NCBI GenBank assembly: GCA_964057225.1
Contig: OZ059895.1
Span: 13,206,001 to 13,270,000, forward strand
Source: Auanema rhodensis
Taxonomy: Eukaryota; Animalia; Nematoda
DNA length: 64,000 nt
Direction of reading: 5' to 3'
In this document: positions 299 through 60,644 of the stretch, piece by piece
Layout of the letters: the number at the start of each line of letters is the position of its first letter
Position numbering within the stretch: the stretch's first letter is position 1
Notes under the pieces: generated by a model
The model's input: the letters and a program-made list of their open reading frames with translations, nothing else
What the model was told of the DNA's origin: nothing
Database searches by the model: none
Program-made: the position numbers and the translations under genes

Positions 299-313
299 TA
301 AAAAAATTTGAAA

Positions 314-9400: not shown

Positions 9401-9428
9401 GTACTTTCAACGTGGTATGGTCGTAAGC

Positions 9429-17133: not shown

Positions 17134-17252
17134 AGCTTACGGCACCCGGGATTCCCAAGCCGTCTCCGATCCAAGTACTAACCGGGCCCAACGTTGCTTG
17201 ACTTGCCAGATCGGACGGGATGGCGTACTTTCAACGTGGTATGGTCGTAAGC
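17134..17252 (-). rRNA. 5S rRNA (full left-arm copy nearest the inversion point)
   Basis: Full 119-nt consensus copy. Confidence 0.95.
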
Positions 17253-19576: not shown

Positions 19577-19634
19577 TTGGAAAAAAAACAATAACGAGGA
19601 TAAGTATGTAAATCATTGAATATCAGGTATTTTC

Positions 19635-19753
19635 GCTTACGACCATACCACGTTGAAAGTACGCCATCCCGTCCGATCTGGCAAGTCAAGCAACGTTGGG
19701 CCCGGTTAGTACTTGGATCGGAGACGGCTTGGGAATCCCGGGTGCCGTAAGCT
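19635..19753 (+). rRNA. 5S rRNA (first right-arm copy)
   Basis: 119-nt consensus copy followed by TTT. Confidence 0.96.
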
Positions 19754-31700: not shown

Positions 31701-34700
31701 CGCAATGCAGCTGATTTTCAATTTTATCTCTTCCGTAACAAATGTTTTTAATTTTCTAGCAGTTTTACTTAGATAGCTCAACCCAAGGCATCAAAATATC
31801 TTCAATCTTATTTCTATATTACAGTTATAAACCAGTAGTTTATGAACCTTCATCTTAACTTTACTGTTTCTATCTATTTCCTATTGAAACAAACATTGTT
31901 TTAACACTATACAACTGTGAAACCTTTTTTAATTTATTGTATTTGGAGCTCATAAGATTTGATATCATCGAGGAATTTAGATGTAACGTAGAAAATTACA
32001 TAACTAACATGAAATTGGAAAAAAAACAATAACGAGGATAAGTATGTAAATCATTGAATATCAGATATTTTCGCTTACGACCATACCACGTTGAAAGTAC
32101 GCCATCCCGTCCGATCTGGCAAGTCAAGCAACGTTGGGCCCGGTTAGTACTTGGATCGGAGACGGCTTGGGAATCCCGGGTGCCGTAAGCTTTTCAAATT
32201 TTTTTAACGATCATACCACGTTGAAAGTACGCCGTGCAGCTGATTTTCAATTTTATCTCTTCCGTAACAAATGTTTTTAATTTTCTAGCAGTTTTACTTA
32301 GATAGCTCAACCCAAGGCATCAAAATATCTTCAATCTTATTTCTATATTACAGTTATAAACCAGTAGTTTATGAACCTTCATCTTAACTTTACTGTTTCT
32401 ATCTATTTCCTATTGAAACAAACATTGTTTTAACACTATACAACTGTGAAACCTTTTTCAATTTATTGTATTTGGAGCTCATAAGATTTGATATCATCGA
32501 GGAATTTAGATGTAACGTAGAAAATTACATAACTAACATGAAATTGGAAAAAAAACAATAACGAGGATAAGTATGTAAATCATTGAATATCAGGTATTTT
32601 CGCTTACGACCATACCACGCTGAAAGTACGCCATCCCGTCCGATCTGGCAAGTCAAGCAACGTTGGGCCCGGTTAGTACTTGGATCGGAGACGGCTTGGG
32701 AATCCCGGGTGCCGTAAGCTTTTCAAATTTTTTTAACGATCATACCACGTTGAAAGTACGCAATGCAGCTGATTTTCAATTTTATCTCTTCCGTAACAAA
32801 TGTTTTTAATTTTCTAGCAGTTTTACTTAGATAGCTCAACCCAAGGCATCAAAATATCTTCAATCTTATTTCTATATTACAGTTATAAACCAGTAGTTTA
32901 TGAACCTTCATCTTAACTTTACTGTTTCTATCTATTTCCTATTGAAACAAACATTGTTTTAACACTATACAACTGTGAAACCTTTTTTAATTTATTGTAT
33001 TTGGAGCTCATAAGATTTGATATCATCGAGGAATTTAGATGTAACGTAGAAAATTACATAACTAACATGAAATTGGAAAAAAAAACAATAACGAGGATAA
33101 GTATGTAAATCATTGAATATCAGATATTTTTGCTTACGACCATACCACGTTGAAAGTACGCCATCCCGTCCGATCTGGCAAGTCAAGCAACGTTGGGCCC
33201 GGTTAGTACTTGGATCGAAGACGGCTTGGGAATCCCGGGTGCCGTAAGCTTTTCAAATTTTTTTAACGATCATACCACGTTGAAAGTACGCCATGCAGCT
33301 GATTTTTAATTTTATCTCTTCCGTAACAAATGTTTTCAATTTTCCAGCAGTTTTACTTAGATAGCTCAACCCAAGGCAGCGAATTATCTCTAATCTTATT
33401 CCTATATTACAGTTATAAACCAGTAGTTTATGAACCTTCATCTTAACTTTACTGTTTCTATCTATTTCCTTTTGAAACAAACATTGTTTTAACACTATAC
33501 AACTGTGAAACCTTTTTTAATTTATTGTATTTGGAGCTCATAAGATTTGATATCATCGAGGAATTTAGATGTAACGTAGAAAATTACATAACTAACATGA
33601 AATTGGAAAAAAAACAATAACGAGGATAAGTATGTAAATCATTGAATATCAGGTATTTTCGCTTACGACCATACCACGTTGAAAGTACGCCATCCCGTCC
33701 GATCTGGCAAGTCAAGCAACGTTGGGCCCGGTTAGTACTTGGATCGGAGACGGCTTGGGAATCCCGGGTGCCGTAAGCTTTTCAATTTTTTTTAACGATC
33801 ATACCACGTAGAAAGTACGCAATGCAGCTGATTTTCAATTTTATCTCTTCCGTAACAAATGTTTTTAATTTTCTAGCAGTTTTACTTAGATAGCTCAACC
33901 CAAGGCATCAAAATATCTTCAATCTTATTTCTATATTACAGTTATAAACCAGTAGTTTATGAACCTTCATCTTAACTTTACTGTTTCTATCTATTTCCTA
34001 TTGAAACAAACATTGTTTTAACACTATACAACTGTGAAACCTTTTTTAATTTATTGTATTTGGAGCTCATAAGATTTGATATCATCGAGGAATTTAGATG
34101 TAACGTAGAAAATTACATAACTAACATGAAATTGGAAAAAAAACAATAACGAGGATAAGTATGTAAATCATTGAATATCAGATATTTTCGCTTACGACCA
34201 TACCACGTTGAAAGTACGCCATCCCGTCCGATCTGGCAAGTCAAGCAACGTTGGGCCCGGTTAGTACTTGGATCGGAGACGGCTTGGGAATCCCGGGTGC
34301 CGTAAGCTTTTCAAATTTTTTTAACGATCATACCACGTTGAAAGTACGCCGTGCAGCTGATTTTCAATTTTATCTCTTCCGTAACAAATGTTTTTAATTT
34401 TCTAGCAGTTTTACTTAGATAGCTCAACCCAAGGCATCAAAATATCTTCAATCTTATTTCTATATTACAGTTATAAACCAGTAGTTTATGAACCTTCATC
34501 TTAACTTTACTGTTTCTATCTATTTCCTATTGAAACAAACATTGTTTTAACACTATACAACTGTGAAACCTTTTTTAATTTATTGTATTTGGTGCTCATA
34601 AGATTTGATATCATCGAGGAATTTAGATGTAACGTAGAAAATTACATAACTAACATGAAATTGGAAAAAAAACAATAACGAGGATAAGTATGTAAATCAT

Positions 34701-34718
34701 TGAATATCAGGTATTTTC

Positions 34719-34837
34719 GCTTACGACCATACCACGTTGAAAGTACGCCATCCTGTCCGATCTGGCAAGTCAAGCAACGTTGGGCCCGGTTAGTACTTGG
34801 ATCGGAGACGGCTTGGGAATCCCGGGTGCCGTAAGCT
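34719..34837 (+). rRNA. 5S rRNA (C36T variant, last copy before element A)
   Basis: 119-nt copy. Confidence 0.94.
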
Positions 34838-35183
34838 TTTCAATTTTTTTTAACGATCATACCACGTTGAAAGTACGCAATGCAGCTGATTTTCAATTTT
34901 ATCTCTTCCGTAACAAATGTTTTTAATTTTCTAGCAGTTTTACTTAGATAGCTCAACCCAAGGCATCAAAATATCTTCAATCTTATTTCTATATTACAGT
35001 TATAAACCAGTAGTTTATGAACCTTCATCTTAACTTTACTGTTTCTATCTATTTCCTATAGAAACAAACATTGTTTTAACACTATACAACTGTGAAACCT
35101 TTTTTAATTTATTGTATTTGGAGCTCATAAGATTTGATATCATCGAGGAATTTAGATGTAACGTAGAAAATTACATAACTAAC

Positions 35184-35608
35184 TGTTACATACATATCTC
35201 AAAGGAAAGCAGCTGACCATGGCAGCTGCTATTATTAAACTAATGCAGATAGTTTTTAAGCAATTCTGAGAATATTCTAGATGCACTTTTTATAAGCTTT
35301 GTAACAATTTGTGTAAACTGAGTAGGAGTTGTATGGATATATAAACCTGAGTCCTCAAGACTCAGGCATCTCATTATCTCATTATCTCATTATCTTACTT
35401 TCTCTTTATCTTCTTTATATTCTCTTTCTTAACTCTAGCTTAAATCTTTGTATAATTATATTATAATGCGAACAATAAACCTTTATATATTTGATCTCTT
35501 GTTTCTTATTTCACCTTACATTACACACTTATATTTAAAATCATACTCATCGTCTCATAATCTGTTTGGATATCTCAACTTGGAACCATTGAGAATCTAA
35601 ATGGAACG
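35184..35608 (+). repeat. Element A 5' LTR
   Basis: TGTTACAT...ATGGAACG; TATATAAA at ~35338-35345; AATAAA at ~35474; no differences seen against 47089-47513. Confidence 0.96.
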
Positions 35609-35626
35609 TGGAGGTTCCGCCGAGAT
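35609..35626 (+). promoter_or_regulatory. Primer-binding site, tRNA-Gln
   Basis: TGGAGGTTCCGCCGAGAT directly abuts the LTR and is complementary to the eukaryotic tRNA-Gln 3' end (ATCTCGGTGGAACCT-CCA) with one G.U pair. Confidence 0.88.
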
Positions 35627-36354
35627 CCTTCCTTTTGGACAGGATCTCGTAAAGGAACTCAAGCGCTACCGTCTACATCTCTTATTCAATTAAAAATCTT
35701 ATCTCTCTCTTAAAGTTAGCTTATAATATTTTCTTAAAAACTCTAAAACTTTTCTATTAAAAATTATATCCAAAAACTCTTTACAAAAACTCAGTCTTCC
35801 ATTCATTATATTCTCATAAAATTATTCATAAGAGTACTTATATCATTTATCATTCTCTCTATCCAAAATCCTATATACGAAAATTATTCAAATTCAATAA
35901 TTAACTTTTCTAAGAATTATAAGTTTATTTTCACATTTTTTGAACAAAAATAGTTAAGTTCTTTATAAAATTAATTTAGAATTAAGAAATAAAAAAAGAA
36001 TATTGCTTCTATACCTCTCAATCTTAATCATCTTATCATATTATCTGAATCTTCATCTTATCATACTATCTTAATCATCCTATCATACCATATTTTTATT
36101 ATTTTCTTTATGTTCGTTTATAAAACTATTATTCTTATGCTACTACACTGTATTCTCATAAACCCACCCCTTCCCCCCCCCCCCGTTATTTCATAAACAA
36201 GAAATCCCGTGTTAAACACGACAGTAAAAATATTTATTAGGCGCAGCGTATCCAAATTCCGATTACCTTAGCACCTGAAAATACGAAAAATAATTAAATT
36301 AATCAATAAGTTTTAACTCATACGCAAAAACCATCCCCCTCGTTAAGAATAATG

Positions 36355-36554
36355 CCAGACACTCAAGAGACTCGAGCGGAGGCCGACACTCAGGATAAGA
36401 CGTACGCCCCATGAAATAATTAGAGAATTTTTGAATTGAAATCTGCCCCACATTGATATAAATAATAAGAGTGGTCTCGCCATCATAGAGTCAGGGAGCA
36501 GGATGCAGAAGGCAGCTGACATACCTGTGACTCAGATAGGTTAATGAGGTCTGG
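36355..36554 (+). ncRNA. Structured cis-acting RNA domain in the element A leader (putative packaging or translation element)
   Basis: Helices CCAGAC-CTCA/TGAGGTCTGG, GAGAC+CACTC/GAGTGGTCTC, GAGTCA/TGACTC and GCAGG/CCTGT; equivalents in element B show compensatory changes. Confidence 0.7.
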
Positions 36555-36852
36555 GAAAATGAAATGATTGCGAAAATTCTATTTTGTATCCTTGTCCCAA
36601 AAGACTGGCGAACTATTAACTTTCATTTCATGCCTTTTTCACAATATAGAACTTGTCCCTTCGAAAAGGCACACTAGTTTCAAACCTGTGTTAGACCCGG
36701 ACAAGCTATATTGGTAAAGAGATTACTTGCAAGACTAGCTACCTTCATAAGAATCGCGCACACAAACCCAACATTATTCTTTACGTTTTTCTATATATAA
36801 AATTATTTCGGCACACGTTGGATATAACAAATTTCCTTACAGGATACCAACG

Positions 36853-39800
36853 ATGCTGCCCAATACTGGTCCAAAACCTCCGCTGGACCCTGCTGCCACT
36901 TCAAATATTATAAGAAGAAAAAGACAACCGCCCGCAACATATTCTCCCCCCTCTGCAAAACAAGCGAAGTTAAGCATTAAAACAAAGTCAATGGTAATAC
37001 ATACCCCAAGACATCGCGGCATTCAAAAACAATTCACCAATCCCAAATCACATGAAAAAACGAAGAAACAAAAAACAGACATAGTCGAAAGAAACACCTT
37101 AGAAAAGAAAATTATCCCAAACATTAAACCTATTCCTAAAAACATAGCAAGCAAAGGGAACCCTCAAAACCCCCCAACCAACACCATACCAAATACAATC
37201 AACCCAATCAATCCTTTAATAGCCACCCCTAGAAGAAGCAATACACCAACCACACAAAAATCACCTACGCCCGCACTTTCTTCAACCACACCCGCAGTAA
37301 GCTCATCCCCACCTCTACGAAACTCACCTTCATCCATTGATCATTCTACATCCGGGCATTCTCTATCTCCGTCTCTTCCATCGCAAACTAATCAAGCAAA
37401 TACTTTTGTTGCAGAAAACAAGAGAATTAACCCAAGAATGGACCCAATGGACGAAGGCGCACCACTTACGCAAACCTCGGGAAGGGCACCTGTTCCAACA
37501 CCTACAATCATCCCTCAACCAGCAGCGATTCCGTCCGCCATACGCGATATAAAAGCTCCACGCTACGATGGAAAAACACCATTCAACCGCTATCTACTAT
37601 ACCTAGATGAACACTTCAACGCTACAAGAACAACTATGCCCGAACGTCTTCAAAGCATACAATTATTGCTAGAAGATGATCGAGCAAGAGAAGCGTACAG
37701 AAAACTCACAACCGAAGATAAGCGACTTGGATGGGACCATGTCAAGAAGCGACTCTCAGAAATGATCACACCGGAAAAACAGAGAGAACGAGCAATGCAC
37801 CGCCTACATGGCTTGAAACAGTTACCAACGGAATCGGTACAAAGCTTTGCAACAAGATGTTCTAACGAAGCCTACTCGGCTATGGACATGAACAACGAAA
37901 GTGAGCTTAACATGCTCCGATCCACCTTCACCTGGGGACTAAGACCCGAAATAAGCGAACACGTTAGCCGTCTAGACCCACCAAACTTTGAGGAAGCTTA
38001 CGAAATGGCCTTACGAGAAGAACTCTTTATACAAAATAGACCACCATCGTTCGTCAACAATATGGAGAAGTCGTTCAACAACCTCAACATTCGAGACTCA
38101 AAGGACAACAATCAATACCAGAGAAACGAATCTAAGGATTTCAAAGGAACCAAACCGATGTATAATGGCAATGGCAAACCACACAACCGATATCCGGACA
38201 GATACAACAACCAATATCGGCCTCATCAACACCAATACAGGAACCATAACTCACGATTCTCTCAAAATAAGGGATCAAGACAAAACTACTTCGACAGATC
38301 ACGGAACAGAAGCCAAGAAAGACCATACTATCGAAACCGCGACCAAAACTATAGCGGACACAACAACCGGCGACAATCAAATAATCACGAACAATACCCC
38401 TCTCAATACAATCGAAGCCAATACAACAATTATAGAAGTCGCCCGCGCAGCACCTCCAATGGACCGGAACGGTATAGAGAACGCACACAGAGCCCAGGAG
38501 TACGTTTTCAAGTCAACAACGTCACGGAAAACAAAGTACCGAACAACAAAAGAAAATCAACACCATTCCTACCCCTTTTTATCACAATTATCGCACTCAT
38601 TATAAACACATGCAGTGCAGAAACAACGTACCAGTTATGCACAGGAAACAGAGGAGGAATATATGTCGAGCCGCCATCTCCAACAGCTTGCCGATCCACC
38701 GCACCAACTAATAACCATATCCAGAAGACAACAGCAGAATTGTTCATCCAAAACCTACAACCAAAAGAATGGGAAGCATGGAAATGTGCAATTGAAACTT
38801 ACCAACTCTGCATTCACGACGTTTTCTTCATCAGAGAAACTAATGTCTCACTAGCAAAAGTTTCACCAACAACACTGCAAGAATGTTCGTCAGCTATTAA
38901 AGAAAGAATATTCAACGGTACCAACCTTCAAAGAGAAGCACCAGGACTCTATGGAACTCCATTCCCAGAGACAACCATTACTAATGGTATATGGAAACAG
39001 GAATGCGAACAACGTACCAGATTCATAGCTGAACGAGGACACATGACCAGCCTACAAGACAATACAGTACTCTCAGATATATTCATAAACGACAACGGAT
39101 GCACCAGTGACAAAGGACAATGCCTAACCAACAACGCTCTCATCATATGGACCCCACCATCAGAAAAACATAGTTGCTCGTACACTTCATTAGGCTCTCA
39201 CGAAGTTTTTATATCAGAAGACACCATATTGATTCCCGGAATTCAAAGTGCTTTTATTCTAAACAATAAAACACCGGAAAAAGAAGCCTCCTCATGCTTA
39301 CAAAAAGATATATTTACTACAAATAGTGGAACTCTAATCTCCTTCAACTCAACCTCAAGCTTAGGACGATCAAGAAGACACGCAATCACGGAATACCCTA
39401 AAGGATTCTTGACAGTTCATCAATACCCCTCGCTAAGATATTCAGCCAGCAAAACCGGAACTATTCTACTATATACAACCTATATTCAACGGAAAAGACT
39501 TGACATCCATTACAATCTCAATAACATAACAAATATGTTACCTAAGTATATCGCAATCTTCAAATACCTAGGTATAAATTTTGATGTTATCAAAAATCGT
39601 CTTATATGGCACAAATATGAAGACGTCAACATAGCCATTCTACACGCCCTAGGAGAAGCAGAAATAAGAGAAGCAACAAAAATCGCGATCGATAATCTAT
39701 CGTATAAGGAACTTACGCATAAACTTAGCAAACGGATCACAATTAAGGATTTTAAGAAGATACTACCAACCAAAACAGGAGACTACTATGAAATCGCGAA

Positions 39801-42800
39801 AGAAATTGCTTACTCACTTGCGGAAATACCTACTACGTTAGCTACAGGAGAAACAACACCATCTTTAGAAGAATACTTATATCAACTCATGCCACCAAGA
39901 AAACCAAGACTCACCAAGACACGAAACGATTTAGAACTGTACGAACAACTAGCACAAGCAAAAATTATCCTGAACGCAATAAATAATCCGAAGAAGCTAC
40001 ATTCAAAAGAAGAATACGAAGCAGAAATGAAGAAATGGATCAAATATGAAAAAGAACTGAACTTACCACCATTACAACTGCCAAACTACACAGTTATCTT
40101 CGATGGCGACGATATATTCTACGGCTTCCGAAAAAGAAATCCTACAAATTATAGCATTACACAAGAGGATAGTGAAAAATTTTATAATCATTATCTACCC
40201 CTTATCAGTACTCCCGGAACACGACCTTTTGCAACCACAATTAGAAGCACTTCGACCCCCCTACAAACTACTACTACAACCACTACCACGACCCCTAAGC
40301 CTACAACCATAAGGAACGTCATCACTTCGACAATCACACCCAAAACACATATATCCACAACAACTAGACCCAAACCAACAATACCCACGTCTTCATCAAC
40401 TACTACTACTACTACCACTACTACTACTACTACTTCTACTACTGCTAGACCCAGATCAACAACAACCACAACACCTACAACAACCACAACTATATTCACC
40501 ACTCATCGACCAACACAATCATTCTCCACCCCCCAATCTACATTCAATATTACTACAAACCCAATCACAATCACCTCAAGCCAGGAATACAATAGGAAAG
40601 AATCACTCACCAAGTCACCGCCTCCAAGAACTACAAAAAGATCTATCACTACCACTCGCAGCACACTTGAAGAAATATCATCACATATTGGTAAGAAAGC
40701 TCACGTAGACTACCTTAAAGCTAAGAACGATATCGTCCAAAAATGGAATGAACATCTTCATCAACAAGAAACGCAATCTCATCTACAATATGCCACTACC
40801 AATCTGGAAGATGATATCATACGTACGTTCACAACAAACAGAAACAACATCTGCCACGTACAAAATAAACAACTACTTACCTGGTGGGCTATTCTTCAAA
40901 TAAATCCTACTATAGGGATGCGTACAATGCTACGACGACAGGATATATCTGCAAGATTCATAAATGATAAACTAATTTATGTAATGCCATGCACACCAAT
41001 TCAAATTACAAAAACATACCGCGATCACAAAGTCAACAGCACGTGTTTCCTGGAAACCCCAGTCGAAACGGAACATCACGGCCAACTGTTCATCCTACCA
41101 GGTACAAGAGACCTCACACCGATGGCACATGCCATACCATGCGGATTCACAATCAAGGATCCCTGGAAAGAAAACGATCAATGGACTAATAATAACCAAT
41201 CAATAAATGTAACATCACCAGCATACATCGACGAGTTAGGATCAATCAACCTAGAACATATCAAGTTTAATGGAAGCAACATTTTCAACAATCTAACAGA
41301 ATCAACGTTTCCTATGGCACTAGCAATATCATATGGATCCAGCTTAGCAACGCTACAGGCTACTTTACCAGGAAGAATAAAACCTGTAATCAAACAAAGA
41401 TTAATTCCTAACATGAACCCTGTTACCCTAACAGCAGGAGCAGCCAGCAGCTTACTACTCAGCTACGAACATACAAAAGAAGCTATAACTTGGAAAATGT
41501 TTGACTTTCTGTCACCAATATGGGAAAAGATTCAAACCTGGACACTACGCGTACTTGCTATCATTGGATCAATCATCATAACAATTGGCATAATCACACT
41601 CGCCACCTGGATAATAAAAATATACGCATGTAGTTCAAGGATACCCATCAACAATGTCAAATGGGAAGCAGAATACTTACAACCACTATCAACTGAGAAC
41701 ACAAGAACAGAAACATCTCATCCTTCTCCGTCCGCTCCATACGTCGACAACCATCACAACAGCTGTCAACTCACATTGTATGATCCTTCAGCACCAATTC
41801 CTGAACACATTTATGAAGCTTATTTCCCTACAAGCATGAAGAAAGAAAACATAAACTACATAGGAGGATCACAATTACCGTTTGTCCCAATTTCAATCCA
41901 CAATCACATCTTTAAGGCACTATGGGACACGGGAGCATCAGCATCATACATGCGAGAATCCACCTTCAAACAACTGCCCGCTGCAACGATGGTACTAAAA
42001 CAAACAACAGCGATAGTCGCGAATAAATCTAAATTCTCATTTATGGGATACACAAGGATCCTCATAACAATAGGAACAACAGAAACAGAACACAAATTTT
42101 ATGTAGCAGAAGATAACTACTGTCCAGCACCAGTGTTACTTGGAATAGACTTCATGGAAGCATTACATCAACAAGGAATTTACACCTCACTTCGACCGCT
42201 GGATAAAACAATTGTTATCGGCACAACACATGTTCCACTAGCACGAGAAACATCTCCGTGGGAACACCAGACCACGAAAGCATATGTGGTTAGCTTAGAA
42301 AACAAAACGCTAAGACCAGGAGAAACAAGAACGCTCACGCTAGAAGTACACGATCCAGAAAGCTATGAACAGGCGTTTCTAGATTGTAAGAAACCAGGCA
42401 ACAAACTCTCTTTCACGCCTACTATATTTACGCCCACTGGATACGGAGTACAAATTTACGCGACGAACATATGCAAACAGCCACTCGAAATTCAAATGAA
42501 CCAAGAAATAGGGATAGCAGAAGCGATACCAAAGGACAACCAAGAAAAATACGAAGGACAATACATACTTCCGGAAGCTCGATGGGAAGAGCAACTGCCA
42601 TATTTCCCAGACAAGTTCATCAATGAGCTTGACCTTTCAGAAGCCTGCTTCTCACAAATCGAACAACAGCAACTGAAAGAAATAATTTTACTACATAAAC
42701 AAGCGTTTCTCAACGAAGATAGAAATATCGGACTCTTCCTAGGACCAATTGAACACTCCATTCCAATCATGCCAGGAAAAACACCATCATTCAAAATTAC

Positions 42801-45800
42801 TTATCGTATACCACTCTCCCAACAAGAAGAAGTAGAGAAACAAATAGAAGAAATGCTACAACAAAGAATCATTGAACCATCAAACTCAATGACAACTAGT
42901 CCAGTAATTTTGGTGAAGAAGAAAGACAAAACTTATAGATTTGTAACGGACTTTCGAGCTCTGAATGCAATCACTCAGAAACAAGTATATGTCATATCAA
43001 ACATACAGGACATCCTAGATTTGGCCGCTGGAGCAAGGATCTTCAGCAACTTTGATTTAGTATCTGGATTTTTCCAAATACCTCTTAAGAAAGAAGATCG
43101 TCATCTTACAGCTTTCACAACAACAAGTGGAACTTACCAATATTGTCGAATGCCGATGGGATTATGTGGATCACCCCATACTTTTCAAAACGCAGTACGA
43201 TACCTGCAATCAATGGTTAAATGCAAGCTATTCGTATATCTAGATGATTTACTGTTAATCTCTGAATCTACGACAGCACATTTAAAAGATATTGAAGAAG
43301 TTTTGGAAGCAGTAACTCAAATAGGATTCAAAATAAAACTGAAGAAATGCGCATTCGCAAGAAAGGAAGTAAAATTTCTAGGATACATAGTTGGACAAGA
43401 AGGAATTAAACCGGACCCACATAAAATTAAGGCAATACAAGATTATCCCCAACCAAAATCAACAACAGGAGTAAGAGCTTTCATGGGAGTAGTAAACTAC
43501 TTCAGAAGGTTCATAAAGAACGCTGCAGGAATAGCAACACCACTCTACAACCTCACTCGGAAAGACACTCCGTTCAAATGGACAGAAGAAGAAGAAATTG
43601 CTTTTAATACTTTGAAGAAAACATTGACTCAAGCACCTGTGTTACAAGCACCAATCCCGAAACGACCATATGTTATTGAAAGTGATGGAAGTATGATAGC
43701 AGTTGGCGCTGTACTACTTCAAGCGAAAGACGATCAAGAACCATTACATCCAATAGCTTTTGCTAGTCGGAAACTCAACAAAGCTGAAAGGAATTATCCA
43801 CCAATAGAAGTAGAAGCATTAGCTCTTACATTCGCCGTCAAACAATTTCGCACCTACATACTAGGAACAGCAACCAAAATTATCACGGACCATGGACCAC
43901 TCACTAGTTTAATGACTAGAAAGGATTTAATAGGTCGTTTAGCAAAATTTCAAATTGTTTTACAAGAATACGATATTGAAATTATCTACAGACCAGGAAA
44001 ATTAAACAGTGTATGTGACGCATTATCACGATATTTTGAAGATGAAATCAACGAAGCAAAACCACCAGCAAAGAAGAAAAACGAAAGAAAAACGACGGAA
44101 GATACTATTCATCAGATAAACACCTTCACGATAGCAGATATTCGATCAGTTCAGAATCAATCAAATTGGATAAAAGAAACTATGGATAAAATAAAGAATA
44201 ATACAGCTGGACGACAACTGACGGACAGATATATTGTGTACAACGATGTACTATACTCAAAACCAAAAAGAAGCCTACAAGTACCACGAACAATTTTACC
44301 ACGAGAAGAGCACATAATTAATCCAATTATGAAGAAATTTCATGAAGATCCGACACTCGGAGCTCATCTAGGAATAAACAAAACAATGGACTCAATATCG
44401 AGACGATTTACATGGACTGGAATGCAAGAAGACATTACAAACTACATCAACAGATGTCTTGCTTGTGCGAAAAGAAAGAACAACCCTCACGAAGCAACGG
44501 TGGAACCAATGAAAAATTTTCCAACATCAACAAAACCATGGCAAGTACACATGGATATACTCGGACCATTACCTAGGACAGAACAAGAAAACAGATATGT
44601 TCTTTCAATTCAAGATTCTTTTTCAAAATGGATAATCGCAATTCCGCTAATCAGACAAACATCAGAAGAAATTATATCAGCTATCGAAAAATATCTCTTT
44701 TATGTTTTTGGACCACCTGTTACTATCATCACAGACAATGGATCTAATTTTATTTCAAACGATTTCACTACTATGTGCAGTAATTTTGGAACTACACACC
44801 ACACTACTATGCCGTATTACAAAAACGCTAACGGACAAGTAGAAAGATTGCATCGGACGATCGAAGAAGCATTAACAGCCTACGTTAATGACGAACAAAA
44901 CGATTGGGATAAGATACTTCCGAAGATTATTTTTACACTCAACAGATTACCAAACGCCACCACTAAAACATCACCATACGAATGTTTGTTTGGACAAGTA
45001 GCACGTCTACCCATTGACAAAAACTTGGAAACACCGGAAGAACAAAATATCACGGATCAGCTCAAAAACTTAAGAGATATTCAAGAAAAAGTCAAGGAAA
45101 AGATTGCCACCAACGAAGAAAGAATGAAGCAGAAATACGATCAAGCACATAGGACAAAAGAAAGAATATTGGATATAGGAGATCGAGTATTTGTACAAAG
45201 AGCGAACCCAAGCAACAAATTACAAATACGAAGAGATGGACCTTACCGGATAGTGACAATTGAAGGAAACAACATCAGCATAACGGACCAAGATGGAAAT
45301 ATTATAAAAGCTCACAAAAATAACATACGTTATTTTCCACCAGACGATAATCTTATATCAACAAGAAATAATGAAGAAGAGGAAGAAGAAGACCAAGACA
45401 TAGCAAACGAAGAAGAAGAAGAAGAAGAAACAAGTTGGAATAATCTGGATGAATGGGAACAAACCAATAATACGGAAAATAACAACAACTGTTACCCAAC
45501 AGGCAGTCCAGATACTCTCGCGCAACTGTTACCTATCACAGGGAATAACAGAGGAATAAACGAAGAAGAAATTGAACATAATTCAGAAACACCTGACGAC
45601 CTTGCTACAGCAAGAAGAATAACAAATTCTAATATACAATTAGAAAATGAATCAACAACAATCGACAGAATTCAAGAGGACCTCAGACAGCTGACACCTT
45701 TCTCTCAAGAAGAAGGTCCTAATCAAAACGATATAGAAGATAATAACGCAAAAACATACGAAAAGCTACGAGATCAATTCAAGAATGAAAACAGAAAGGA

Positions 45801-46050
45801 GCTATTTGAGGACAGAAACAAAAACTCACCAGCAATCAAAAATTGGAACACTACACTTGCCGCAGCACTAGGAATAGGAAATGAAAACTCACGCCCGTAT
45901 CATGTTAAACTACAACCCAAAAGAAAAACACAAGACGAAGAAATCAGAAGTAATGGAGAATTGGAACTACATGGAAAAGCGGATCAAAGCAAAAAGCAGC
46001 AGAATAAATCTCCAACGCAAAACAAAGGAGAACAAGTACGAAACTTTTAA
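36853..46050 (+). CDS. Gag-Env-Pol polyprotein (3065 aa): capsid-like Gag, class III fusion glycoprotein, aspartic protease, RT, RNase H, integrase
   Basis: Gag APRYDG...LKQLPTESVQSF...FTWGLRPEI; signal peptide 38563-38619; furin-type RSRR 39367-39378; gB-like LQY...C.VQ...INPT...ISARF...MPC from 40780; TM 41551-41616; LWDTGAS (DTG 41926-41934); YLDD 43237-43248; RNase H ESDGS...EALA...TDH; HHCC, D-D-E and GPY integrase motifs. Confidence 0.96.
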   Translation: MLPNTGPKPPLDPAATSNIIRRKRQPPATYSPPSAKQAKLSIKTKSMVIHTPRHRGIQKQFTNPKSHEKTKKQKTDIVERNTLEKKIIPNIKPIPKNIASKGNPQNPPTNTIPNTINPINPLIATPRRSNTPTTQKSPTPALSSTTPAVSSSPPLRNSPSSIDHSTSGHSLSPSLPSQTNQANTFVAENKRINPRMDPMDEGAPLTQTSGRAPVPTPTIIPQPAAIPSAIRDIKAPRYDGKTPFNRYLLYLDEHFNATRTTMPERLQSIQLLLEDDRAREAYRKLTTEDKRLGWDHVKKRLSEMITPEKQRERAMHRLHGLKQLPTESVQSFATRCSNEAYSAMDMNNESELNMLRSTFTWGLRPEISEHVSRLDPPNFEEAYEMALREELFIQNRPPSFVNNMEKSFNNLNIRDSKDNNQYQRNESKDFKGTKPMYNGNGKPHNRYPDRYNNQYRPHQHQYRNHNSRFSQNKGSRQNYFDRSRNRSQERPYYRNRDQNYSGHNNRRQSNNHEQYPSQYNRSQYNNYRSRPRSTSNGPERYRERTQSPGVRFQVNNVTENKVPNNKRKSTPFLPLFITIIALIINTCSAETTYQLCTGNRGGIYVEPPSPTACRSTAPTNNHIQKTTAELFIQNLQPKEWEAWKCAIETYQLCIHDVFFIRETNVSLAKVSPTTLQECSSAIKERIFNGTNLQREAPGLYGTPFPETTITNGIWKQECEQRTRFIAERGHMTSLQDNTVLSDIFINDNGCTSDKGQCLTNNALIIWTPPSEKHSCSYTSLGSHEVFISEDTILIPGIQSAFILNNKTPEKEASSCLQKDIFTTNSGTLISFNSTSSLGRSRRHAITEYPKGFLTVHQYPSLRYSASKTGTILLYTTYIQRKRLDIHYNLNNITNMLPKYIAIFKYLGINFDVIKNRLIWHKYEDVNIAILHALGEAEIREATKIAIDNLSYKELTHKLSKRITIKDFKKILPTKTGDYYEIAKEIAYSLAEIPTTLATGETTPSLEEYLYQLMPPRKPRLTKTRNDLELYEQLAQAKIILNAINNPKKLHSKEEYEAEMKKWIKYEKELNLPPLQLPNYTVIFDGDDIFYGFRKRNPTNYSITQEDSEKFYNHYLPLISTPGTRPFATTIRSTSTPLQTTTTTTTTTPKPTTIRNVITSTITPKTHISTTTRPKPTIPTSSSTTTTTTTTTTTTSTTARPRSTTTTTPTTTTTIFTTHRPTQSFSTPQSTFNITTNPITITSSQEYNRKESLTKSPPPRTTKRSITTTRSTLEEISSHIGKKAHVDYLKAKNDIVQKWNEHLHQQETQSHLQYATTNLEDDIIRTFTTNRNNICHVQNKQLLTWWAILQINPTIGMRTMLRRQDISARFINDKLIYVMPCTPIQITKTYRDHKVNSTCFLETPVETEHHGQLFILPGTRDLTPMAHAIPCGFTIKDPWKENDQWTNNNQSINVTSPAYIDELGSINLEHIKFNGSNIFNNLTESTFPMALAISYGSSLATLQATLPGRIKPVIKQRLIPNMNPVTLTAGAASSLLLSYEHTKEAITWKMFDFLSPIWEKIQTWTLRVLAIIGSIIITIGIITLATWIIKIYACSSRIPINNVKWEAEYLQPLSTENTRTETSHPSPSAPYVDNHHNSCQLTLYDPSAPIPEHIYEAYFPTSMKKENINYIGGSQLPFVPISIHNHIFKALWDTGASASYMRESTFKQLPAATMVLKQTTAIVANKSKFSFMGYTRILITIGTTETEHKFYVAEDNYCPAPVLLGIDFMEALHQQGIYTSLRPLDKTIVIGTTHVPLARETSPWEHQTTKAYVVSLENKTLRPGETRTLTLEVHDPESYEQAFLDCKKPGNKLSFTPTIFTPTGYGVQIYATNICKQPLEIQMNQEIGIAEAIPKDNQEKYEGQYILPEARWEEQLPYFPDKFINELDLSEACFSQIEQQQLKEIILLHKQAFLNEDRNIGLFLGPIEHSIPIMPGKTPSFKITYRIPLSQQEEVEKQIEEMLQQRIIEPSNSMTTSPVILVKKKDKTYRFVTDFRALNAITQKQVYVISNIQDILDLAAGARIFSNFDLVSGFFQIPLKKEDRHLTAFTTTSGTYQYCRMPMGLCGSPHTFQNAVRYLQSMVKCKLFVYLDDLLLISESTTAHLKDIEEVLEAVTQIGFKIKLKKCAFARKEVKFLGYIVGQEGIKPDPHKIKAIQDYPQPKSTTGVRAFMGVVNYFRRFIKNAAGIATPLYNLTRKDTPFKWTEEEEIAFNTLKKTLTQAPVLQAPIPKRPYVIESDGSMIAVGAVLLQAKDDQEPLHPIAFASRKLNKAERNYPPIEVEALALTFAVKQFRTYILGTATKIITDHGPLTSLMTRKDLIGRLAKFQIVLQEYDIEIIYRPGKLNSVCDALSRYFEDEINEAKPPAKKKNERKTTEDTIHQINTFTIADIRSVQNQSNWIKETMDKIKNNTAGRQLTDRYIVYNDVLYSKPKRSLQVPRTILPREEHIINPIMKKFHEDPTLGAHLGINKTMDSISRRFTWTGMQEDITNYINRCLACAKRKNNPHEATVEPMKNFPTSTKPWQVHMDILGPLPRTEQENRYVLSIQDSFSKWIIAIPLIRQTSEEIISAIEKYLFYVFGPPVTIITDNGSNFISNDFTTMCSNFGTTHHTTMPYYKNANGQVERLHRTIEEALTAYVNDEQNDWDKILPKIIFTLNRLPNATTKTSPYECLFGQVARLPIDKNLETPEEQNITDQLKNLRDIQEKVKEKIATNEERMKQKYDQAHRTKERILDIGDRVFVQRANPSNKLQIRRDGPYRIVTIEGNNISITDQDGNIIKAHKNNIRYFPPDDNLISTRNNEEEEEEDQDIANEEEEEEETSWNNLDEWEQTNNTENNNNCYPTGSPDTLAQLLPITGNNRGINEEEIEHNSETPDDLATARRITNSNIQLENESTTIDRIQEDLRQLTPFSQEEGPNQNDIEDNNAKTYEKLRDQFKNENRKELFEDRNKNSPAIKNWNTTLAAALGIGNENSRPYHVKLQPKRKTQDEEIRSNGELELHGKADQSKKQQNKSPTQNKGEQVRNF

Positions 46051-46254
46051 TTAACTAACAAAAATCGTAGAATTGTAAAAATAATTTTTCTTTCTTTCGT
46101 ATAGTACATTAAACATAAGACATAGATCAAAAACCACCGAAATTCTAATTTCTATCTTTTAATTTTAACAAATTGTAACAATCACTGAAAAAACAAACTA
46201 TATAAAGAGAAAATTTTGATAGAGAAAAATTCAATAACACTTTTCTTACTCAAA

Positions 46255-46899
46255 ATGACCTCCTCTCTCGCCAACGTCACACTCTCTACATTCCTCGCAA
46301 CTCCAACACCACTGGTCCCTCTAGCGACCACTATTGAACAAGAATGGATAGAGGTAGAAAACCTTCGTGAAGGTCTTCTACCTATCAACTGCATGAAGCC
46401 CAACTTAGGACCAATAATAAGCCTCCAAACGAGCAAATTGGAAAAGAAGACACAGCACATCCTATTTATGATGGAACTATTGGAGGAGAAAACCAAAAAC
46501 TATAAGGAAAACGATCTGAAGGAGCTTCGCCAGCATCAAAAGAAATGGACAGAAGGATGTTCTCTCAGCCAGAAAGAGAACAGAATCCGACACATAATGC
46601 TGGGACAACCCGCCAGAACGCAGACCACAGCTGACATCTACAAAGCAATGCCGACGTGGACAACACAGATGACACAACAAGCTGTAGGAAATAGCGGAAC
46701 CGAAGAAGAAGCATCGTGGATAGAGATAGGGCAAGACCTATCAGTAGTAATCAAAAAACTACTGACAAAAAGGACTACCAACATGTCCGCATCAAAAAGT
46801 AAGGCAAAAGCAGTTAGCCAAACCATCAGAACAATGGAGCTGCTTGGACTAGCATCAATGACGGAAATGATCCAGGAAATTGACCAACTGGCGGATTAA
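46255..46899 (+). CDS. Accessory ORF2 of element A (214 aa from first ATG), unknown and probably helical
   Basis: Open frame between pol and the 3' LTR; positional and weak sequence homologue of element B ORF2. Confidence 0.75.
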   Translation: MTSSLANVTLSTFLATPTPLVPLATTIEQEWIEVENLREGLLPINCMKPNLGPIISLQTSKLEKKTQHILFMMELLEEKTKNYKENDLKELRQHQKKWTEGCSLSQKENRIRHIMLGQPARTQTTADIYKAMPTWTTQMTQQAVGNSGTEEEASWIEIGQDLSVVIKKLLTKRTTNMSASKSKAKAVSQTIRTMELLGLASMTEMIQEIDQLAD

Positions 46900-47088
46900 A
46901 GAAGAGAGGAAAGGTTTAAATCATTTATAAAATTCTATCTCTTAAAATTTTTTCTCTTTATCAATAGTTTGTTGAAAAATTTGCTTTATCTCATGCCATT
47001 TTATTTTTTTTTATTTTTTTTATTTTTCTCTCTTAATTATTATTTGCATATAACAGCTGAGGTCAGCTGACTTGTATTCGTTGGGGCA

Positions 47089-47513
47089 TGTTACATACAT
47101 ATCTCAAAGGAAAGCAGCTGACCATGGCAGCTGCTATTATTAAACTAATGCAGATAGTTTTTAAGCAATTCTGAGAATATTCTAGATGCACTTTTTATAA
47201 GCTTTGTAACAATTTGTGTAAACTGAGTAGGAGTTGTATGGATATATAAACCTGAGTCCTCAAGACTCAGGCATCTCATTATCTCATTATCTCATTATCT
47301 TACTTTCTCTTTATCTTCTTTATATTCTCTTTCTTAACTCTAGCTTAAATCTTTGTATAATTATATTATAATGCGAACAATAAACCTTTATATATTTGAT
47401 CTCTTGTTTCTTATTTCACCTTACATTACACACTTATATTTAAAATCATACTCATCGTCTCATAATCTGTTTGGATATCTCAACTTGGAACCATTGAGAA
47501 TCTAAATGGAACG
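47089..47513 (+). repeat. Element A 3' LTR
   Basis: 425-bp direct repeat of 35184-35608. Confidence 0.96.
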
Positions 47514-47581
47514 TAACATGAAATTGGAAAAAAAACAATAACGAGGATAAGTATGTAAATCATTGAATATCAGGTATTTTC

Positions 47582-47700
47582 GCTTACGACCATACCACGT
47601 TGAAAGTACGCCATCCCGTCCGATCTGGCAAGTCAAGCAACGTTGGGCCCGGTTAGTACTTGGATCGGAGACGGCTTGGGAATCCCGGGTGCCGTAAGCT
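47582..47700 (+). rRNA. 5S rRNA immediately downstream of element A
   Basis: 119-nt consensus copy. Confidence 0.96.
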
Positions 47701-47744
47701 TTTCAATTTTTTTTAACGATCATACCACGTTGAAAGTACGCAAT

Positions 47745-48026
47745 GCAGCTGATTTTCAATTTTATCTCTTCCGTAACAAATGTTTTTAATTTTCTAGCAG
47801 TTTTACTTAGATAGCTCAACCCAAGGCATCAAAATATCTTCAATCTTATTTCTATATTACAGTTATAAACCAGTAGTTTATGAACCTTCATCTTAACTTT
47901 ACTGTTTCTATCTATTTCCTATTGAAACAAACATTGTTTTAACACTATACAACTGTGAAACCTTTTTTAATTTATTGTATTTGGAGCTCATAAGATTTGA
48001 TATCATCGAGGAATTTAGATGTAACG
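47745..48026 (+). mobile_element. Putative decayed LTR relic forming most of the 5S spacer (representative unit)
   Basis: Collinear matches to the LTRs of A and B: GCAGCTG, GTTTTTAA, TATAAACC(A/C)GTAG, TTAACTTTACT-GTTT, ATTTCCTATTG and the terminal GAAT(T/C)TA(G/A)ATG(T/G)AACG. Confidence 0.55.
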
Positions 48027-48110
48027 TAGAAAATTACATAACTAACATGAAATTGGAAAAAAAACAATAACGAGGATAAGTATGTAAATCATTGAATATC
48101 AGATATTTTC

Positions 48111-48229
48111 GCTTACGACCATACCACGTTGAAAGTACGCCATCCCGTCCGATCTGGCAAGTCAAGCAACGTTGGGCCCGGTTAGTACTTGGATCGGAGA
48201 CGGCTTGGGAATCCCGGGTGCCGTAAGCT
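48111..48229 (+). rRNA. 5S rRNA
   Basis: 119-nt consensus copy. Confidence 0.96.
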
Positions 48230-48639
48230 TTTCAATTTTTTTTAACGATCATACCACGTTGAAAGTACGCAATGCAGCTGATTTTCAATTTTATCTCTTC
48301 CGTAACAAATGTTTTTAATTTTCTAGCAGTTTTACTTAGATAGCTCAACCCAAGGCATCAAAATATCTTCAATCTTATTTCTATATTACAGTTATAAACC
48401 AGTAGTTTATGAACCTTCATCTTAACTTTACTGTTTCTATCTATTTCCTATTGAAACAAACATTGTTTTAACACTATACAACTGTGAAACCTTTTTTAAT
48501 TTATTGTATTTGGAGCTCATAAGATTTGATATCATCGAGGAATTTAGATGTAACGTAGAAAATTACATAACTAACATGAAATTGGAAAAAAAACAATAAC
48601 GAGGATAAGTATGTAAATCATTGAATATCAGATATTTTC

Positions 48640-48758
48640 GCTTACGACCATACCACGTTGAAAGTACGCCATCCCGTCCGATCTGGCAAGTCAAGCAACG
48701 TTGGGCCCGGTTAGTACTTGGATCGGAGACGGCTTGGGAATCCCGGGTGCCGTAAGCT
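48640..48758 (+). rRNA. 5S rRNA
   Basis: 119-nt consensus copy. Confidence 0.96.
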
Positions 48759-49099
48759 TTTCAATTTTTTTTAACGATCATACCACGTTGAAAGTACGCA
48801 ATGCAGCTGATTTTCAATTTTATCTCTTCCGTAACAAATGTTTTTAATTTTCTAGCAGTTTTACTTAGATAGCTCAACCCAAGGCATCAAAATATCTTCA
48901 ATCTTATTTCTATATTACAGTTATAAACCAGTAGTTTATGAACCTTCATCTTAACTTTACTGTTTCTATCTATTTCCTATTGAAACAAACATTGTTTTAA
49001 CACTATACAACTGTGAAACCTTTTTCAATTTATTGTATTTGGAGCTCATAAGATTTGATATCATCGAGGAATTTAGATGTAACGTAGAAAATTACATAA

Positions 49100-49485
49100 C
49101 GTTCCATTTGATTGCCCTAGGGTTCCGACTAGGGTTTCAGATGGATTTTGTGCAAGGATTTCATTGTTCAACAAGTAGATAAATTAGCAACCGTTTTATT
49201 ATATAGAGAAAACTACAATAGGAAATGTTATAAACTACAAACAAGTAAAGTTAAAGTCTAAAACTACATGATAGAAGATCTCTCTTAGTGTGTTTTCTAC
49301 GGGTTTATATAGCAAACTATAGAATGTAAAAAGTGAATGAATTTGTATAAAAAGAATTACGTTCCACCTTATTCCGTGGAATCTTTTATAAAAAAACTTT
49401 CGAATTCTAGTTTCTTATTTTATTTGATTAAACTAAAGTCGGTTGACGTAGTCAACCGCCTTCTCTATAAGTTATGTATGGAACA
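49100..49485 (-). repeat. Element B 3' LTR
   Basis: Direct repeat of 60259-60644; one substitution seen (49249 A versus 60408 T). Confidence 0.96.
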
Positions 49486-49697
49486 TGCCTTATAGGAAAA
49501 AGTTAGCTGACCTCAGCTATAAGAAATTAGATTTCGTGTTTTTTTTTTTTTTTTTTTTTTTTTTGAAACAAAAAAAAAAAAAAATTGAAACAAGAATAGG
49601 AATAATAGAATAGGTAAGTGAATAATAGAGTGAAAAAAAATAAAAAAAAATAAAAATAAAATGTTTTATTGATTCATCACCTCTTTCTTAGCAGTTT

Positions 49698-50327
49698 TCA
49701 TCCTTCCTCCTCATTGATTTGTCCCATTTGAAAGTCGGTTGCTGTATGCTGCCCAGCGACGGTCCATGTGTGATAGAGACTGAGATCTGTCAGCAAATCT
49801 GTCGTCTGGTTGCATATCTTCTTTTTCATATCTTTCTGGTTCTGGGTGGTGGCGCCAGTTGCCATTAAAATCTTCAATGCTTGGCCAACTCGTTCTCCAG
49901 CTTTCCTTATTGACTGGTTTGCGGACTTGTTTAAACTCTCTTCTGTCCAACTCTTGTAGATTTCTTCTGCGGCCCATCTCGGGATTAGATCAGCGCTTCC
50001 TTCGTATTCTGGGATTGAATAGCCTAATTCTTGACGCAGTTTGCGGATGGTGAACTTGGTGCGGACGGTGGCTGACAACCAGTTCTTTGCCATTTTGGCC
50101 ATTTCGTCTTCTTCATGGTTACATAAACATTGTAACCTTTCCAGAGTTTCTATCAATAGAGTCACTCTGGATAGATTCTCCGAGAAGGACCGAAGAATCT
50201 TTAGTTTCTTGGGGTTGTCTTTCTCCAGCTCTTGTAGCTCAATTTGGAGTGAATGGATGTTGATCCATTTTTCCTTGATCATTTCGATGGGTGTCTCGCA
50301 GGGTAGAGGTGGAAGGTTGAGCGACAT
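49698..50327 (-). CDS. Accessory ORF2 of element B (209 aa from MSLNLPP; upstream in-frame ATG at 50402 crosses a poly-A tract)
   Basis: Same position as ORF2 of A; shared pattern TP..I...WI.+..L, L+E.LE, K.W, +R..LG, P.W, +GQ.L. Confidence 0.75.
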   Translation of the reverse strand: MSLNLPPLPCETPIEMIKEKWINIHSLQIELQELEKDNPKKLKILRSFSENLSRVTLLIETLERLQCLCNHEEDEMAKMAKNWLSATVRTKFTIRKLRQELGYSIPEYEGSADLIPRWAAEEIYKSWTEESLNKSANQSIRKAGERVGQALKILMATGATTQNQKDMKKKICNQTTDLLTDLSLYHTWTVAGQHTATDFQMGQINEEEG

Positions 50328-50543
50328 CTTGTCGAATTCGGAGGAATTTTTTTTTTTTTTTTTTTTTTTGCTTGAGGTGTTTTTGAGCTTATATAGCTCC
50401 ATGCAAAGCAGGTTTTTTTTTTTTTTTTTTTTTTTTCAGGTTACTGTAGGTGATGAATCGTTTTTTTTTTTTTTTTTTTTTTTTTTTGAACAGAGAAGGT
50501 AGAATTTTTAGAGAGATAGTGTGATTGATGACAAAAAAAAAAA

Positions 50544-59288: not shown

Positions 59289-59594
59289 TTTTGTTGGTTT
59301 CCTGGAAGGAAATTATTAACCAACGAAGACTGAGCTTATATATACAAACGTAAGAAACAATATGGGGTTGGTATGCGCGACTCCTGTTTCTGTCAGGGGG
59401 CCAGCCTGCAGCGGGTCTCTAGTCGGAGAATAGCCTGGTCAGGTTCATACACGAGTCCGCAACTACGTGTGACCTTAGCAAAGGACCGGGTTCTTATCTC
59501 ACGAAGAGGCATGAGATGCGAGACAGTGGTCTGTGTATTGTGCCTTTTCAGTCATGGACAAGATCAGGTACACAGGCTTCTCGAACTCATTTTT

Positions 59595-59806
59595 CCAGAC
59601 TTCTCGTGCCTAAGCGAACCCGCAGAAGACGTTCCCTTTTAACGTTGCTTCTGCTCCCCTGGGCTCTGCTAGGTGGGACCACTTAACTTCAAAAAAATAT
59701 TACGTTTTGTAATTCTCATATAGGACCGAAAAAGGGTTAATTTCAAATGAATGCGCGTCTTATATCAAAAGTGTACGCCTCCGCACGATGTCCCGAGAAA
59801 GTCTGG
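59595..59806 (-). ncRNA. Structured cis-acting RNA domain in the element B leader
   Basis: CCAGACTT-CTCG/CGAGAAGTCTGG, GGGAC+CACTT/AAGTGGTCCC, GAGCCC/GGGTTC, GCAGAAG/CTTCTGC. Confidence 0.7.
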
Positions 59807-60240
59807 TATTGTTTCTCACGGGCTTGAATAAAATAGAATAGTTTATGGTTTATGAGTAGGAAGTTTTACGAAGAGAAAAAAAAATAGATGATTCAAGAAT
59901 ATGTTTTGGTATTTTTTTTTTTTTTTTTTTGAAAATGTCTTATAAATGATAATGAATAAATGTTTTTAAAGTATTTTATAAATAGATTATGACAATAAAT
60001 GTTTTGATTTGTTTGTTTCAAAAGAGTTTTCATGCATTATATGCTTTTAATATATATGAAATAAAAGAATGAAGTAAAGATAAAATTCGGGTAACATTTA
60101 GGAGATAAAATTGACAATTTTAGAAATAGAAGTTTGAATATTATATAAAGTTTTGATATGAAGGATAAAAGATTTTGAATACAAAAAGGATTTCGAAAAG
60201 TAGCGGAAATGGTCCATAGAGATCCGTCCGTTATAGACGG

Positions 60241-60258
60241 ATCTCGGTGGAACCTCCA
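60241..60258 (-). promoter_or_regulatory. Primer-binding site, tRNA-Gln
   Basis: TGGAGGTTCCACCGAGAT on the minus strand, directly abutting the 5' LTR. Confidence 0.9.
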
Positions 60259-60644
60259 CGTTCCATTTGATTGCCCTAGGGTTCCGACTAGGGTTTCAGA
60301 TGGATTTTGTGCAAGGATTTCATTGTTCAACAAGTAGATAAATTAGCAACCGTTTTATTATATAGAGAAAACTACAATAGGAAATGTTATAAACTACAAA
60401 CAAGTAATGTTAAAGTCTAAAACTACATGATAGAAGATCTCTCTTAGTGTGTTTTCTACGGGTTTATATAGCAAACTATAGAATGTAAAAAGTGAATGAA
60501 TTTGTATAAAAAGAATTACGTTCCACCTTATTCCGTGGAATCTTTTATAAAAAAACTTTCGAATTCTAGTTTCTTATTTTATTTGATTAAACTAAAGTCG
60601 GTTGACGTAGTCAACCGCCTTCTCTATAAGTTATGTATGGAACA
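60259..60644 (-). repeat. Element B 5' LTR
   Basis: TGTTCCAT...ATGGAACG on the minus strand; TATATAAACCC and AATAAA present. Confidence 0.96.

Follow-up and report, generated by a model that had tools for sequence, protein, structure and literature searches.

A predicted gB-type Env within a single Gag-Env-Pol reading frame of two gypsy elements in the 5S rDNA of Auanema rhodensis

Overall organization of the elements

Two complete long terminal repeat (LTR) retrotransposons, E1 (35184-47513, forward strand) and E2 (49100-60644, reverse strand), are present in a 64,000-nucleotide stretch of the Auanema rhodensis genome (GCA_964057225.1, contig OZ059895.1, positions 13,206,001 to 13,270,000), which is called the window here and whose own numbering is used throughout. 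It is well supported that they belong to a lineage of gB-type enveloped gypsy elements, a layout that has already been published, to which the present analysis adds a processing motif and a possible targeting of 5S rRNA genes. The overall best explanation, held with high confidence, is an enveloped gB-type gypsy element with a fused, membrane-spanning Gag-Env-Pol polyprotein.

Each element contains one uninterrupted open reading frame (ORF), as the preliminary description of this DNA had reported. The E1 frame encodes 3065 amino acids (aa; 36853-46050, forward strand) and the E2 frame 2913 aa from its ATG (50544-59285, reverse strand). The order of the Pfam domains is the same in both: Retrotrans_gag, a gB-like stretch, an aspartic protease (PR), RVT_1 (reverse transcriptase, RT), RNase H (RH), and the zinc finger and rve domains of the integrase (IN). 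The capsid-like Gag stretch of E1 (aa 275-364, 37675-37944, forward strand) matches Retrotrans_gag with an E-value of 1.8e-4, below the cut-off for E1 and above it for E2. PR (DTG at aa 1692), RT (YLDD at aa 2129), RNase H and integrase follow at 41875-44988 (forward strand), while the C-terminal tails of the integrases have no Pfam match above the cut-off. The two copies are diverged, with 85% identity in RT-RH vs 51% in Env. Direct LTRs, a primer-binding site (PBS), a short target-site duplication (TSD) and the gypsy-type order PR-RT-RH-IN are all features of Ty3/gypsy elements (Metaviridae).

Env is bracketed by two hydrophobic segments, a signal segment and a transmembrane (TM) anchor, which were called from hydropathy alone and are the only two in each polyprotein with a 19-residue hydropathy of at least 1.6. 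In E1, the internal signal segment covers aa 571-589 (38563-38619, forward strand), with a cut between A589 and E590 predicted by eye, and the hydropathy peak of the anchor lies at aa 1567-1585 (41551-41619, forward strand). The corresponding segments of E2 are at 561-579 and 1499-1517. Together with the Pfam domains, these segments agree with the earlier account of a signal peptide, a Cys-containing ectodomain of about 1000 aa with N-glycosylation sequons, a TM helix and PR-RT-RH-IN.

The fused frame is not an assembly artefact: that reading was rejected on the strength of two diverged copies, 24 relatives with the same fusion, and contigs from public runs that bridge the Gag-signal-Env junction (X11, 36861-40142; X9, 38297-39234). 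The contig comparison covered 34900-40380 in four of the 15 listed runs. None of the 10 indels listed falls in the ORF, and no stop is found among the 23 ORF substitutions listed (27 more rows lie beyond these). Among the 19 of 58 loose-end rows listed, the only sequence ahead of the LTR start in each of the four runs was the 3' end of the element itself, which is given no weight as evidence. E1 is present in public runs X1-X15 under five organism codes. The compared runs also carry a near-identical 5S spacer, so these codes probably represent the same or a very close species rather than a transfer of the element.

The Env ectodomain

Judged from profile searches and a predicted model, the Env ectodomain is a class III fusogen of the gB type. 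The ectodomain of E1 (38620-41550, forward strand) is about 975 aa long and that of E2 about 917 aa; each has 14 cysteines, with 13 sequons in E1 and 12 in E2. A profile was built from 92 rows, consisting of both elements and 90 matches picked for length and coverage, and its cysteine columns are conserved across these rows. The C-terminal half of the profile matches herpesvirus gB chains (best E-value 1.8e-15), and positions 52-186, in the N-terminal half, match chains titled Glycoprotein or RABV-G-ecto (best E-value 3.4e-6). Both resemblances proposed earlier from the letters alone, a rhabdovirus G-like N-terminal half and a gB-like core helix, are thus recovered at the profile level. Single sequences give a weaker signal: for E1, the Pfam gB match is below the curated cut-off and Monjiviricetes_fusion (PF24664) is missed. 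Only E2 scores above the cut-off for the latter family (70 bits vs 27).

The ectodomain of E2 was modelled with AlphaFold as a single chain from the 92-row alignment (mean pLDDT 72.5, pTM 0.50). Its best fit is to prefusion gB, with a Z-score of 14.8 for the Epstein-Barr virus (EBV) protein (rmsd 5.2, 387 residues aligned); against postfusion gB, the Z-score is about 10 and the rmsd about 42. When 48,161 representatives were compared with the model, all six chains with a Z-score of at least 8 were gB, followed by Chandipura G (7.7) and the Bourbon virus glycoprotein (6.0). The top BFVD matches for Env are rhabdo-like and nyamivirus glycoproteins, with a nyamivirus G in second rank (E-value 1.8e-13). 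The profile, the fit to gB and the BFVD matches all bear out the class III assignment of the preliminary description, which had called for such a structural match.

Two predicted fusion loops could be located. The first (VFF, 38821-38829, forward strand; LFF in E2) is at the tip of a hairpin in the E2 model and is hydrophobic in 92% of 56 rows. The second (GIW, 38986-38994, forward strand; SFW in E2) corresponds to a column that is hydrophobic in 93% of 64 rows. Such values are expected of bipartite fusion loops. Further downstream, a furin-like site (RSRR, 39367-39378, forward strand; RQKR in E2) precedes a large insert, and the gB core helix with a domain IV-like part is found at aa 1308-1445 (40774-41187, forward strand).

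The fusogen core makes up about half of the ectodomain, the remainder being the insert of 430-490 aa (39379-40773 in E1, forward strand), predicted as an all-helical domain followed by a Thr/Ser-rich, mucin-like tract. The gap between the Env halves is 488 residues in E1 and 429 in E2, compared with 32-61 in most relatives. The helical domain of about 200 aa (39379-40242; 55983-56762 in E2) is confident in the E2 model, where only 5-15 alignment rows cover it. No family match to the insert was obtained in Pfam or the Atlas, in searches in which the insert was neither folded nor searched alone. Among relatives, the insert length ranges from about 30 to 530 aa.

Relatives and comparison with known elements

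A HMMER protein scan gave 257 relatives, 150 of which are listed and underlie the counts given here. Gag, Env and PR are fused in one protein in 24 of the 150, while env is placed after integrase in 14, with Peptidase_A17 in all six of the latter that were scanned. Counting E1 and E2, a signal-like segment is present in 44 of 50 proteins and a TM segment in 48 of 49. In an RT tree of 28 rows, E1 and E2 group together, along with 19 other proteins with env before PR, and seven pol-env proteins stand apart at 100/100. No related loci were found in two metagenome scans. Two or three tandem protease-like domains follow the Env TM in five relatives (P0011, P0016, P0029, P0047 and P0094).

Gag-env-pol order had been put forward as unusual for this DNA, a claim that does not stand because a family with the same organization has been described. 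In the available text of Chary and Hayashi (eLife 2026, PMC13524379), Ty3/gypsy elements with an HSV/gB-type Env are arranged GAG-ENV-POL in Nematoda, Bryozoa and Platyhelminthes; gB is the only Env type of the nematode, bryozoan and flatworm elements, for which Sacco et al. 2022 (J Gen Virol, doi 10.1099/jgv.0.001739) is cited, and Supplementary file 1 holds 36 nematode elements. E1 and E2 share with these the gene order, a gB-type Env between signal and TM, the fusion loops, the LTRs and the tRNA-Gln PBS 12-mer. In the table of that study, the 12-mer of E2 is identical to the tRNA-Gln PBS of two Caenorhabditis elements, and the 12-mer of E1 has one mismatch. The main text, as available, does not contain the words polyprotein, protease cleavage, mucin, rDNA, 5S rRNA or insertion site, and the processing motif, Env insert and 5S position of E1 and E2 are accordingly untreated there under those words.

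Compared by description, E1 and E2 also resemble the NERV elements in having a single ORF, a nyamivirus G in second rank of the BFVD matches, and one small ORF after pol. The NERV, or Nematoda endogenous retroviruses, of Sacco et al. 2022 reportedly have a continuous gag-env-pro-pol ORF with a metavirus RT, a nyamivirus-like Env and an extra small ORF. Processing or insertion sites may already be given in that work or its supplements.

Elements of the BEL/Pao type with a gB-like env have a homologous Env, but it is placed after pol, and their RT is separated from that of E1 and E2 at 100/100. The mosquito elements of Dezordi et al. 2020 are examples of BEL/Pao elements with a gB-like or chuvirus-like env. 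Membership of E1 and E2 in BEL/Pao (Belpaoviridae) was rejected, as they lack the Peptidase_A17/DUF1759 signature and their env does not follow IN.

Predicted topology and proposed processing of the polyprotein

The hydrophobic segments of the two elements and their relatives support, as a prediction, the topology proposed earlier, with Gag in the cytosol, Env in the lumen and Pol on the Env tail. A short motif, [VI]N-x-[VIL], is a candidate protease site on the cytosolic side. Attention was drawn to it by E1, E2 and one relative (P0003), where it occurs before the signal, after the TM and before PR. In E1, the putative sites are VNNV ahead of the signal segment (aa 554-557, 38512-38523, forward strand), and INNV (aa 1599) and INYI (aa 1667) in the cytosolic linker (41647-41862, forward strand). 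For comparison, the available text on the Ty1 protease gives cleavage of VPTIN/NVHTS (slash at the cut), with mostly Val or Ile at P2 and P2' (PMC6952103).

The motif was then counted in relatives, leaving out E1, E2 and P0003 as well as rows without a hydrophobic segment (four and one, respectively), and compared with 2000 shuffles. Within 40 residues before the signal, the strict motif occurs in 22 of 43 relatives (shuffle mean 1.3, maximum 7), compared with 2 of 43 in a luminal control; a looser form is found in 26 of 43, with 4 of 43 in the control. Within 45 residues after the TM, the strict motif occurs in 18 of 45 (shuffle mean 2.8, maximum 9; luminal control 3 of 45). At either boundary of Env, the motif of these sequences thus faces the cytosol, which suggests how Gag and Pol may be freed.

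The following course can be proposed. The internal signal segment would start translocation, and signal peptidase would release the N-terminus of Env, with Gag staying tethered to the membrane. The TM would halt transfer, leaving PR-RT-RH-IN hanging in the cytosol from the Env tail. With Pol on this tail and Gag tethered, both would gather at the membrane that holds the Env trimers, and Pol would be packaged via Env instead of by a Gag-Pol fusion. The protease of the element itself would cut at [VI]N-x-[VIL] directly ahead of the signal, directly behind the TM and directly ahead of PR, and Env would be split by a furin-like cut ahead of the large helical and mucin-like insert. Particles would bud with Env and fuse by means of the pair of hydrophobic loops, a route that would most likely take the element from soma to germ line. 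Finally, integration would prefer the zone just upstream of 5S genes; this is the least certain step, its chances being slightly short of even. If the processing scheme holds, it would explain how a polyprotein split across the endoplasmic reticulum (ER) membrane could still deliver Pol into a capsid. The motif, if it holds, would also provide a concrete and testable processing scheme for the Gag-Env-Pol group.

Several observations weigh against this picture of an enveloped element. The pTM of the model reaches just 0.50, and against gB the Foldseek TM-scores range from 0.15 to 0.28. The RT tree is without named references, and 15 of its 25 inner branches are unresolved. About half of the relatives have no strict motif in the tested windows, the relatives in the counts are not phylogenetically independent, and the looser motif after the TM is present in 26 of 45 but also in 17 of 45 luminal controls. 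With Gag, Env and Pol at 1:1:1, a capsid would be awkward to assemble, and nothing that could supply excess Gag was identified.

Env could be intact yet act only inside the cell, in assembly or membrane anchoring, or be a passenger, in which case the elements would be ordinary intracellular retrotransposons without an infectious particle. A frameshift in Env would cost Pol too, and an open frame alone is therefore no proof of selection on fusion; the listed ORF substitutions, 11 synonymous vs 12 non-synonymous, also fit this alternative. It is nevertheless improbable. At 51% Env identity, E1 and E2 still have all 14 cysteines, the two hydrophobic loops and the furin-like site in common, the conservation of the cysteine columns extends over the 92 rows, and env could have been removed by in-frame deletion.

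The stoichiometry argument leads to another possibility, that the fusion is chiefly a convenient way of coding and that Gag, Gag-Pol and Env are each made from RNAs that are spliced or end early, as in other gypsy elements with an env. A splice-acceptor-like motif is indeed found in both elements 8-14 bases upstream of the ATG in a simple consensus scan. The same scan revealed no acceptor before PR in E1 or E2, and no donor whose position towards the end of gag is common to both. In addition, Env is flanked on both sides by protease-like sites, and none of the four joints listed is inside the ORF, as seen in contigs of its 5' part. Separate RNAs are an unlikely source of the three proteins, and a membrane-spanning polyprotein that is cut on both sides of Env is preferred.

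Insertion upstream of 5S genes

The repeat flanking both elements is 5S rDNA, which had been overlooked in the preliminary description. A 5S rRNA gene was identified within the repeat unit (Rfam RF00001, four matches of 99-108 bits in the scanned part, 17500-21500), and plain satellite DNA was rejected as the identity of the flanks. The only non-array sequence found in the 64 kb belongs to one retrotransposon lineage, namely E1, E2 and a solo LTR of 339 bp with E2-like ends (19238-19576, forward strand).

All three are inserted at a similar position. Relative to the start of a 5S gene, E1 is located at -68, E2 at -73 and the right flank of the solo LTR at -58, a spread of 16 of 529 bp (n = 3). 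The TSD of E1 (TAAC, 35180-35183 and 47514-47517) occupies -68 to -65, with the element in the same sense as the gene; that of E2 (ATAA on the forward strand) occupies -73 to -70, with the element in the opposite orientation. No TSD flanks the solo LTR, which on its left side joins an inverted unit at +11 or +141. In simulations, the probability of such clustering by chance was 0.0025 for three of three within 16 bp, 0.0098 for three of four junctions, and 0.021 for the two full elements alone.

These positions suggest targeting of the Pol III type by the E1/E2 lineage, a lead based on the analysis of three sites. The odds are even that the clustering instead reflects chance, open chromatin in the AT-rich spacer or a survival bias within the array, and not the integrase. 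The insertions number only three, the solo LTR without TSD has its other junction elsewhere in the unit, and the available text of PMC10946416 describes transposable element (TE) insertions in 5S spacers as relatively frequent. On the other side, the TSDs differ, both orientations occur and the three LTR sequences are distinct, with all insertions confined to 16 of 529 bp; to this are added the simulated values and the fact that only this lineage was found to interrupt the array in 64 kb.

In fish, 5S insertions of Mutsu (a LINE) and of undefined gypsy elements are known, and no targeted animal LTR family is named in the available text (PMC10946416). Nor was a report of a 5S-targeting animal LTR element found in the literature searched, a search outside of which subscription papers fall. 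Pol III-targeting Ty3/gypsy elements comprise Ty3, Tj1, DGLT-A and Skipper-2, to which the non-LTR TRE5 can be added; Table 1 of the review, in its available part, holds fungi and social amoebae only (PMC5911963). The distance is 58-73 bp from 5S for E1, E2 and the solo LTR, compared with 13-33 bp from tRNA genes for DGLT-A and 37-41 bp from 5S for TRE5 (PMC5911963, available part). Like these elements, the lineage is found in either orientation and within a short interval ahead of a Pol III gene. To our knowledge, no env is present in Ty3, Tj1, DGLT-A, Skipper-2 or TRE5.

A more tentative proposal, somewhat doubtful as a whole, unites all these parts in one enveloped animal metavirus, with enzymes packaged on the Env tail, paired protease sites and an integrase aimed upstream of the Pol III complex on 5S genes. 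If true, a metazoan env-bearing element would use a Ty3-like safe-harbour strategy and would also rearrange the 5S array, by the inversion at the solo LTR. It would be a Pol III/5S-directed LTR element of animals, a group beyond the fungi and amoebae named in the available part of the review (PMC5911963). Should 5S-directed integration hold, it would explain how intact copies persist in arrays that are collapsed by short-read assembly, and would make an integrase-tether system of a metazoan accessible to study.

LTRs, leader and accessory ORFs

The 5' LTR of E1 (35184-35608, forward strand) is 425 bp long, begins with TG, ends with CG, and is identical to the 3' LTR (47089-47513, forward strand) at 425 of 425 positions. 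In E2, the LTRs (60259-60644 and 49100-49485, reverse strand) likewise start with TG and end with CG, and are identical at 385 of 386 positions. These near-identical LTRs point to a probably recent insertion of both elements. The TSDs are given here as 4 bp, and a 3-bp TSD with one extra LTR base is also conceivable. All three LTR types terminate in GGAACG and not in the usual CA (at 47513, 49100 and 19576), and each right flank starts with T.

No clear polypurine tract was seen before the 3' LTR of E1 or E2. E1 and E2 do share a conserved palindromic motif, AGCTGA-GG-TCAGCT, immediately ahead of this LTR (47055-47075 and 49499-49519). The PBS of E1, of the tRNA-Gln type (35609-35626, forward strand), is followed by a leader of about 1.2 kb (35627-36852, forward strand), which has two blocks conserved in E2. 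No tRNA genes were found, and 34900-37000, including the leader, gave no Rfam match. Over their final 230 bases, the leaders of E1 (36624-36852) and E2 (about 59290-59520) are 65% alike; this part may be a packaging element or may act as a splice acceptor, in trans or in cis.

Downstream of pol, E1 and E2 each have an accessory ORF in the corresponding place. That of E1 encodes 214 aa (46255-46899, forward strand) and that of E2 (49698-50402, reverse strand) 234 aa from the first ATG or 209 aa from the second. The two have no detectable mutual similarity, and searches gave no assignment.

Organization of the 5S rDNA array

The array that fills the window consists of tandem 529-bp units and 399-bp variants and is interrupted at 19238-19576, 35184-47513 and 49100-60644. 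The array is on the reverse strand at 1-19237 and on the forward strand at 19577-35183 (Rfam RF00001), resuming at 47514-49099 and 60645-64000. This change of orientation occurs exactly at the E2-related solo LTR, whose flanks are unmatched, and which is possibly the site of an LTR-mediated inversion or the junction of two arrays.

The 399-bp units (1-19237; also at 23338 and 25325) are shorter by 130 bp, a loss that takes in the greater part of the 5S gene, and apparently arose by recombination between the start of this gene and its short downstream duplicate at +141. In total, 79 5S starts are present in the window, of which 63 have a full gene, 15 a shortened gene, and one runs off the window end. 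Shortened starts account for 13 of 39 in the inverted block, compared with 2 of 40 in the other block.

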